From NCBI RefSeq assembly GCF_003334315.1, contig NZ_QOWR01000126.1: 979 bases of DNA, one strand, 5' to 3'. The notes beneath the pieces were generated by a model. It was given only the letters and a program-made list of their open reading frames with translations. It had not been told where the DNA came from and ran no database searches. Position numbers and translations under genes: made by a program. This document shows positions 1 through 979 of the stretch, in pieces. The first letter of the stretch is position 1. Each line of letters begins with the position of its first letter. This DNA is from Escherichia coli. GTDB taxonomy: Bacteria; Pseudomonadota; Gammaproteobacteria; Enterobacterales; Enterobacteriaceae.

Positions 1-438
1 AGGCCGCAGTCGGTAACCTCGCGCATACAGCCGGGCAGTGACGTCATCGTCTGCGCGGAAATGGACGAACAGTGGGGATACGTCGGGGCTAAATCGCGCC
101 AGCGCTGGCTGTTTTACGCGTATGACAGGCTCCGGAAGACGGTTGTTGCGCACGTATTCGGTGAACGCACTATGGCGACGCTGGGGCGTCTTATGAGCCT
201 GCTGTCACCCTTTGACGTGGTGATATGGATGACGGATGGCTGGCCGCTGTATGAATCCCGCCTGAAGGGAAAGCTGCACGTAATCAGCAAGCGATATACG
301 CAGCGAATTGAGCGGCATAACCTGAATCTGAGGCAGCACCTGGCACGGCTGGGACGGAAGTCGCTGTCGTTCTCAAAATCGGTGGAGCTGCATGACAAAG
401 TCATCGGGCATTATCTGAACATAAAACACTATCAATAA
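1..438 (+). CDS. insB: IS1 transposase InsB segment (C-terminal part of the InsAB' frameshift fusion transposase); 5'-partial, frame open from base 1
   Basis: The ORF track gives 61..438, but frame 1 is open with no stop from base 1, and the upstream 20 codons ([20 protein letters not shown]) also match InsB. The ATG at 61 is therefore an internal Met, not the real start. From established knowledge, IS1 transposase is made by -1 frameshifting from insA into insB at an A6C motif, which would lie just upstream of this window. Stop TAA at 436-438 lies inside the terminal inverted repeat, as is typical for IS1. Confidence 0.9.
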
Positions 439-453
439 GTTGGAGTCATTACC
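431..453. repeat. IS1 right terminal inverted repeat (IRR), about 23 bp
   Basis: ATCAATAAGTTGGAGTCATTACC; the element terminus ...CATTACC at 453 matches the canonical IS1 end from memory. The partner IRL is outside the window, so the inverted-repeat relationship cannot be checked here. Confidence 0.75.
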
Positions 454-467
454 TATGTAAGGATAAT
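440..467 (+). promoter_or_regulatory. Candidate outward-facing hybrid promoter across the IS1/flank junction (-35-like TTGGAG in the terminal repeat, -10-like GATAAT in flanking DNA)
   Basis: TTGGAG at 440-445 (3 of 6 matches to TTGACA), 16-bp spacer, GATAAT at 462-467 (5 of 6 matches to TATAAT). Motif-level only and weak. Confidence 0.2.
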
Positions 468-556: not shown

Positions 557-802
557 ATGTCAAATACATACCAGAAAAGAAAGGCAAGTAAAGAGTATGG
601 TTTATATAATAAATGTAAGAAACTAAATGATGATGAATTATTTCGCTTACTTGATGATCGCAATTCCTTGAAAAGGATTTCATCTGCCAGAGTATTACAG
701 TTAAGAGGGGGGCAAGACGCTGTTAGATTGGCAATTGAATTCTGCACTGACAAAAATTATATCCGTAGAGATATCGGAGCATTTATACTCGGGCAAATAT
801 AA
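557..802 (+). CDS. yibA: YibA-like HEAT-repeat protein, N-terminal 81 codons terminated by a premature in-frame TAA (truncated product if expressed)
   Basis: Translation MSNTYQKRKASKEYGLYNKCKKLNDDELFRLLDDRNSLKRISSARVLQLRGGQDAVRLAIEFCTDKNYIRRDIGAFILGQI matches my recollection of the E. coli K-12 YibA N-terminus with a few substitutions. The ORF track starts at ATG 542 (MEVPAM...), but that ATG overlaps the Shine-Dalgarno, so 557 is the better start. Stop TAA at 800-802. Confidence 0.65.
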   Translation: MSNTYQKRKASKEYGLYNKCKKLNDDELFRLLDDRNSLKRISSARVLQLRGGQDAVRLAIEFCTDKNYIRRDIGAFILGQI

Positions 803-940
803 ATTTGCAAAAAATGCGAAGATAATGTTTTTAATATTTTGAACAATATGGCATTGAATGATAAGAGTGCTTGCGTTCGAGCTACGGCAATCGAGTCAAC
901 GGCCAGGGAAAGATCATCAAAAGTTCACTTTTTGCACTAA
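557..940 (+). pseudogene. yibA: yibA-like gene disrupted by a nonsense codon (800-802), with a second stop at 938-940 after similarity is lost; likely a pseudogene
   Basis: Same frame downstream of the TAA reads ICKKCEDNVFNILNNMALNDKSACVRATAIESTA (803-904), still YibA-like as I recall it. It then reads RERSSKVHFLH and stops at 938-940, far short of the roughly 280-aa length I remember for intact YibA. Confidence 0.5.
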
Positions 941-979
941 ATAATTCGCATTTTATGTTTAAAAATTGAGATATTCCTT

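Follow-up and report, generated by a model that had tools for sequence, protein, structure and literature searches.

The window, by which we mean the whole 979-base stretch analysed here, falls into two blocks by G+C content, 55% for positions 1 to 453 and 36% for positions 454 to 979. IS1 is a 768-bp insertion sequence with two terminal inverted repeats of about 23 bp, and the first block corresponds to its nucleotides 316 to 768, that is, to the last 453 bases or right-hand 59% of the element. This part of the window belongs to an ordinary, very common IS1. The frame ending at position 438 is open from base 1 and gives a 145-amino-acid InsB product, the C-terminal catalytic part of the InsAB' transposase. 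On this product we found the DDE_Tnp_IS1 domain (PF03400) as well as a match to the NCBIfam IS1 family transposase model NF033558 (139.8 bits against a cut-off of 100, profile positions 82 to 199 of 199). The insB stop codon ends at position 438, but the IS1 portion continues to the end of the inverted repeat at position 453, exactly where identity with IS1A of K-12 ends. The right terminal repeat (IRR) is identical to the right end of K-12 IS1A to IS1E and of the IS1 of plasmid R100, and its reverse complement matches the left repeat (IRL) at 18 of the first 23 positions. At the other end, the window begins 4 to 5 nucleotides past the A6C frameshift motif, with IS1 nucleotides 1 to 315 lying outside it. 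An Rfam scan of the window gave no match. The features are listed in Table 1.

Table 1. Features of the 979-base window, in window coordinates
Feature	Position	Strand	Remarks
insB, 3' part	1..438	+	InsB residues 23-167 and TAA stop at 436-438; by translation, numbered against K-12 insB1
Silent isoform-diagnostic site	78	+	IS1 nt 393; A, against C in IS1A/E (GGA/GGC, Gly)
Silent isoform-diagnostic site	81	+	IS1 nt 396; C, against T in IS1A/E (TAC/TAT, Tyr)
Arg codon AGG, InsB residue 65	127..129	+	Base 129 is IS1 nt 444; G, against T in IS1A/E (AGT, Ser)
IS1 right terminal inverted repeat (IRR)	431..453	+	Overlaps the end of insB; last IS1 base is 453
First nine flank bases, TATGTAAGG	454..462	+	Target-site duplication if the insertion was simple; the duplication is presumed, the IS1 left end lying outside the window
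yrhC pseudogene, yibA-like HEAT-repeat "putative lyase"	557..906	+	In-frame TAA at 800-802; truncated at about 906
Repeat, interpreted as the left end of ISEc1/H-repeat carrying yhhI in K-12	907..979	+	Putative element boundary

The second block is chromosomal and identical at 526 of 526 positions to the K-12 MG1655 sequence downstream of rhsB-yhhH. Its first base corresponds to position 3001 of the K-12 locus (L002), in which the yhhH coding sequence ends at position 2999, so that the flank starts 1 nt after the yhhH stop. The same 14-mer that opens the flank at window positions 454 to 467, TATGTAAGGATAAT, recurs once, some 680 bp further upstream and close to the 3' terminus of rhsB (L002 positions 2319 to 2332); this second occurrence may be due to chance (BLAST E value of 0.045 within the 6-kb locus) or may be a trace of modular Rhs-tip repeats. 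Further along, yrhC is annotated as a pseudogene in NC_000913.3 and described by PGAP as "lyase; internal stop; incomplete". Model NF007244 matched residues 1 to 81 only, with 108.9 bits against a cut-off of 275. The in-frame TAA replaces a lysine codon of the intact yibA of strain B7A. Homology to that gene is lost at position 906, where the segment associated with ISEc1 starts, thus indicating that yrhC is truncated. Judged by its sequence, yrhC is a decayed yibA paralogue, both nonsense-mutated and truncated, in the same state as in K-12. The segment that follows it lies directly upstream of yhhI (an ISAs1-like ISEc1 family transposase) in K-12; E. coli genomes carry it at 4 places in the median and at 10 at most.

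An identical copy (100%) of the complete flank is present in K-12 derivatives, E. coli C, ATCC 8739, ETEC strains, O26, O103 and O111 STEC and others, and 1,818 records carry it at 99% identity or more. The flank suggests a host in the broad K-12-like part of E. coli, which we read as phylogroup A/B1, and nothing narrower.

To assign the IS1 copy, all six annotated K-12 MG1655 IS1 copies and both IS1 copies of plasmid R100 were compared with the window base by base. Names follow the MG1655 annotation, the R100 record and the PGAP labels, and "IS1R" designates here the R100 copies in NC_002134.1 (21225-21992 and 93514-94281). With K-12 IS1A (NC_000913.3, 19796-20563) as the reference, the window showed exactly three differences in 453 bases (450/453 identical), at IS1 nucleotides 393, 396 and 444. 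The sequence-only reading had opposed YAYDRLRK in the window to YAYDSLRK as the IS1 reference and had noted silent differences close by. Both observations were correct: K-12 InsB1 has a serine at residue 65, within LFYAYDSLRKTV, and window positions 74 to 87 read GGGGATACGTCGGG, a stretch that contains both silent differences. IS1E carries the same three states as IS1A, while R100 IS1, IS1B, IS1C and IS1D carry those of the window, showing that the three differences are fixed isoform differences and not noise.

The remaining copies were closer to the window, with the exception of IS1F. IS1B and IS1C differed at a single base of the 453 (nucleotide 704, A instead of T, giving Gln for Leu at InsAB' residue 217), as did IS1D (nucleotide 631, T instead of C, giving Tyr for His at residue 193), while IS1F, which is about 9.5% divergent overall, differed at 42 of 453. 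The two R100 copies, which are identical to each other, showed no difference at all (0/453). None of the six MG1655 copies was identical to the window over the 453 bases. Over the full length, the K-12 copies that depart from IS1A/E do so by 9, 9 and 73 mismatches in our own computation, and the same counts have been published for strain BW25113 in a study that restates the four K-12 IS1 sequence types of Umeda and Ohtsubo 1991 (PMC12428005). IS1A or IS1E, which would show C393, T396 and T444 with Ser at InsB 65, is ruled out by the A, C and G (Arg) of the window.

We therefore assign the visible 453 bases, with high confidence, to the IS1R sequence of an ordinary IS1 element as found on R100. 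This leaves the proposal of a "non-K-12-type" isoform standing in part: the copy is neither IS1A nor IS1E and has no exact counterpart in MG1655, but IS1B, IS1C and IS1D of K-12 share all three states on which the proposal was based. The idea that the isoform is an unusual one does not survive the exact match with R100, and this match does not mean that the YAYDSLRK reference behind the idea was imprecise, since it is correct for IS1A.

We then considered the direction of the amino acid change at InsB residue 65, which by our own count is residue 130 of the InsAB' fusion. Arginine is present at this position in R100 IS1, IS1B, IS1C, IS1D, IS1F (YAYDRIRR) and two Shigella plasmid copies, and serine was seen, among the copies compared, solely in IS1A/E. 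Going by this distribution among copies, arginine is the majority and probably the ancestral state, being shared even by IS1F, with its divergence of 9.5%, and by both Shigella plasmid copies, and serine is most simply a derived state of IS1A/E. The substitution noted in the sequence-only reading would accordingly belong to the reference used there and not to the window. Nothing points to a known functional effect of this difference. In E. coli MLI105, the IS1 located at positions 807 to 1574 of its locus (L011) is a mosaic, combining the silent bases of IS1A at 393 and 396 with the Arg codon base G444 of IS1R; the three sites picked out by the sequence-only reading thus do not always travel together.

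The 5' 315 nucleotides of the element, outside the window, would by extension also be IS1R-like. The complete element might instead be a different or mosaic isoform that resembles IS1R only in its 3' 453 bases and is, for instance, IS1A-like at nucleotides 262 to 304, which we regard as unlikely. Mosaics do exist, as the MLI105 copy in yhhH illustrates (IS1A bases at 393 and 396 but Arg at 444), and PGAP gives some of the copies that match the window at 100% over the 453 bases the label "IS1A family" and others the label "IS1B family", indicating that their 5' parts differ. Diagnostic sites 50, 127, 262, 298, 301 and 304 lie upstream of the window. On the other hand, all five visible diagnostic sites (393, 396, 444, 631 and 704) are in the IS1R state, and the most frequent exact match in plasmids is the IS1R type, mostly labelled IS1B family like R100's own copies. 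Extension of the IS1R assignment to the whole element remains our preferred, tentative reading.

We next addressed the junction between IS1 and the flank (positions 453/454). Both halves are individually very common, yet none of 5,426 complete E. coli genomes has them joined without interruption, the six best genome places consisting of two pieces with extra DNA between them. The junction had no exact match in the GTDB species-representative genomes, nor in the JGI metagenome contigs. IS1 sits in an E. coli-type chromosome at the RhsB locus, 1 nt downstream of yhhH and beside yrhC and the ISEc1 end, where it would have arrived by a simple insertion with a 9-bp duplication. Such an event would read ...TATGTAAGG|GGTGATGCTG... 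at the left junction, downstream of an uninterrupted yhhH, and would have left 9 bp directly duplicated. As to the source of the copy, almost every IS1 transposition observed in K-12 BW25113 is attributed to IS1A/E (PMC12428005). Given this bias, and given that no K-12 IS1 copy matches exactly, spontaneous transposition within K-12 is an unlikely origin; the copy would be better explained by a non-K-12 strain or by plasmid donation of an IS1R. An IS1R-type IS1 located 1 nt after yhhH could, tentatively, serve as a private strain marker and be the record of a plasmid-borne IS1R entering a K-12-like chromosome, a proposal that we put forward as possible rather than probable.

Two other routes to the junction are an adjacent deletion promoted by IS1 and a recombination between IS1 copies, each starting from an IS1 located further upstream in rhsB or yhhH. 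IS1 promotes adjacent deletions, and in 42 complete genomes IS1 and the yrhC flank occur as two separate pieces of one place, together accounting for at least 80% of the window, with listed joined spans of about 1,240 to 1,790 bp. Of the three places that we inspected, MLI105 has IS1 inside yhhH, B7A has it at the 3' end of rhsB, and in 1506D011 an intact yhhH stands between IS1 and yrhC. The left flank lies outside the window, whose content separates neither route from a simple insertion; we consider both routes to be unlikely and retain simple insertion as the working interpretation. The IS1 within yhhH of MLI105 is flanked by a 9-bp duplication, TGTTTTTAC, and represents a neighbouring, independent insertion.

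More generally, the AT-rich 3' end of the RhsB locus, comprising the rhsB tip, yhhH and yrhC, repeatedly has an IS1 close by and looks like a local IS1 hot region. IS1 prefers AT-rich targets, in agreement with such a region.

Both ends of the window deserve attention in this context. Eight draft-assembly contigs that we examined begin exactly at IS1 nucleotide 316 and continue into unrelated flanks, showing that the start of the window is an assembly break point and not biology. The known polymorphic sites nearest to nucleotide 316 are 298/301/304 on one side and 393 on the other. The opposite end of the window also stops within a repeat, as is typical of short-read contigs. With a repeat at either boundary, the window resembles such a contig, so its IS1 part could merge several copies from the same genome into one consensus. 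If this part were a repeat-collapsed assembly consensus and not the true copy beside yrhC, no isoform could be assigned to this particular insertion. In the assembly collection, 397 blocks index the same 145-amino-acid edge product, and this look-up showed that many draft assemblies break at this IS1 position. The join from IS1 to the flank is, however, seamless and falls at the exact IS1 terminus, and the IS1 sequence is an existing, very common haplotype and not a chimera of types. We hold a collapsed consensus to be unlikely, and the conclusion that the element is an ordinary IS1 would be unaffected by it.

We then asked what the isoform could say about the host, since the sequence-only reading had suggested that it might help identify the lineage. 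Many E. coli chromosomes and plasmids contained positions 1 to 455 of the window at 100% identity, and 7,579 records had a best match of at least 99%. When a 91-nt segment spanning the three diagnostic sites was searched for exact occurrences in E. coli records, the window form was found in 5,377 and the IS1A form in 3,536, a record holding both types being counted in both figures. The PLSDB search yielded matches to the 453 bases at 99% or more in at least 5,000 plasmids from at least 10 genera, with Escherichia, Klebsiella, Enterobacter, Salmonella, Citrobacter, Shigella, Providencia, Leclercia, Serratia, Raoultella and others among the matches listed. About 26 of 40 evenly spaced PLSDB rows, a rough estimate of the proportion, were 100% identical and came from Escherichia, Klebsiella, Enterobacter and Citrobacter. 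The suggestion thus fails: the identical sequence is carried by plasmids of several genera and by thousands of E. coli records, and because these 453 bases are widespread on conjugative plasmids, they cannot identify the host lineage. When only 453 bases of an IS1 are read, its isoform is no guide to the lineage of the host, and the insertion site alone could mark the strain for typing.

The more specific suggestion of a Shigella-type variant was likewise not supported, since each of the two Shigella plasmid copies compared, one of them labelled IS1SD, differs from the window at two bases. The record of R100 itself gives Shigella flexneri 2b as the host of this plasmid. The comparison, which covered two Shigella plasmid copies, speaks neither for nor against a Shigella host for the window.

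With regard to function, IS1 produces InsA and, by a -1 frameshift at the A6C motif, the InsAB' DDE transposase, which binds both terminal inverted repeats and gives target duplications of 8 to 9 bp (PMC12428005, PMC12903888). Within this scheme, the visible copy would supply the C-terminal catalytic part of InsAB' and the right repeat. In InsAB' numbering, the window has His193 and Leu217. Residues 193 and 217 are reportedly important for transposability, changes there having been linked to poor transposition by Chen and colleagues in the Journal of Bacteriology in 1998, and the numbering that we computed for the differences of IS1D (193) and of IS1B/C (217) fits these two positions. Unlike IS1D and IS1B/C, the window thus appears to carry the active-type residue at both positions, and this IS1 copy would be predicted to be transposition competent.

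Set against known IS1 elements, the copy holds no new biology. The literature from the late 1970s to 1991 already describes the IS1 iso-forms, among them IS1R and the four K-12 types, and the isoform finding is already known, the copy matching the commonest IS1 type exactly. All of its 453 visible bases are shared with IS1R of R100, among them those encoding Arg at InsB 65 and His and Leu at InsAB' 193 and 217, respectively, as well as the right inverted repeat. IS1A and IS1E of K-12 represent the same element, with the same length and organisation. IS1B, IS1C and IS1D share A393, C396 and G444 (Arg) with the window, whereas IS1F shares the arginine and C396 but has the IS1A base at 393. Finally, the two Shigella plasmid copies are 99.6% identical to the window and both keep Arg at InsB 65, the S. 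flexneri copy (NZ_CP055171.1, IS1SD family label) differing at nucleotides 561 and 715 (Val to Ile) and the S. dysenteriae copy (NZ_CP026779.1) at nucleotides 357 and 757.
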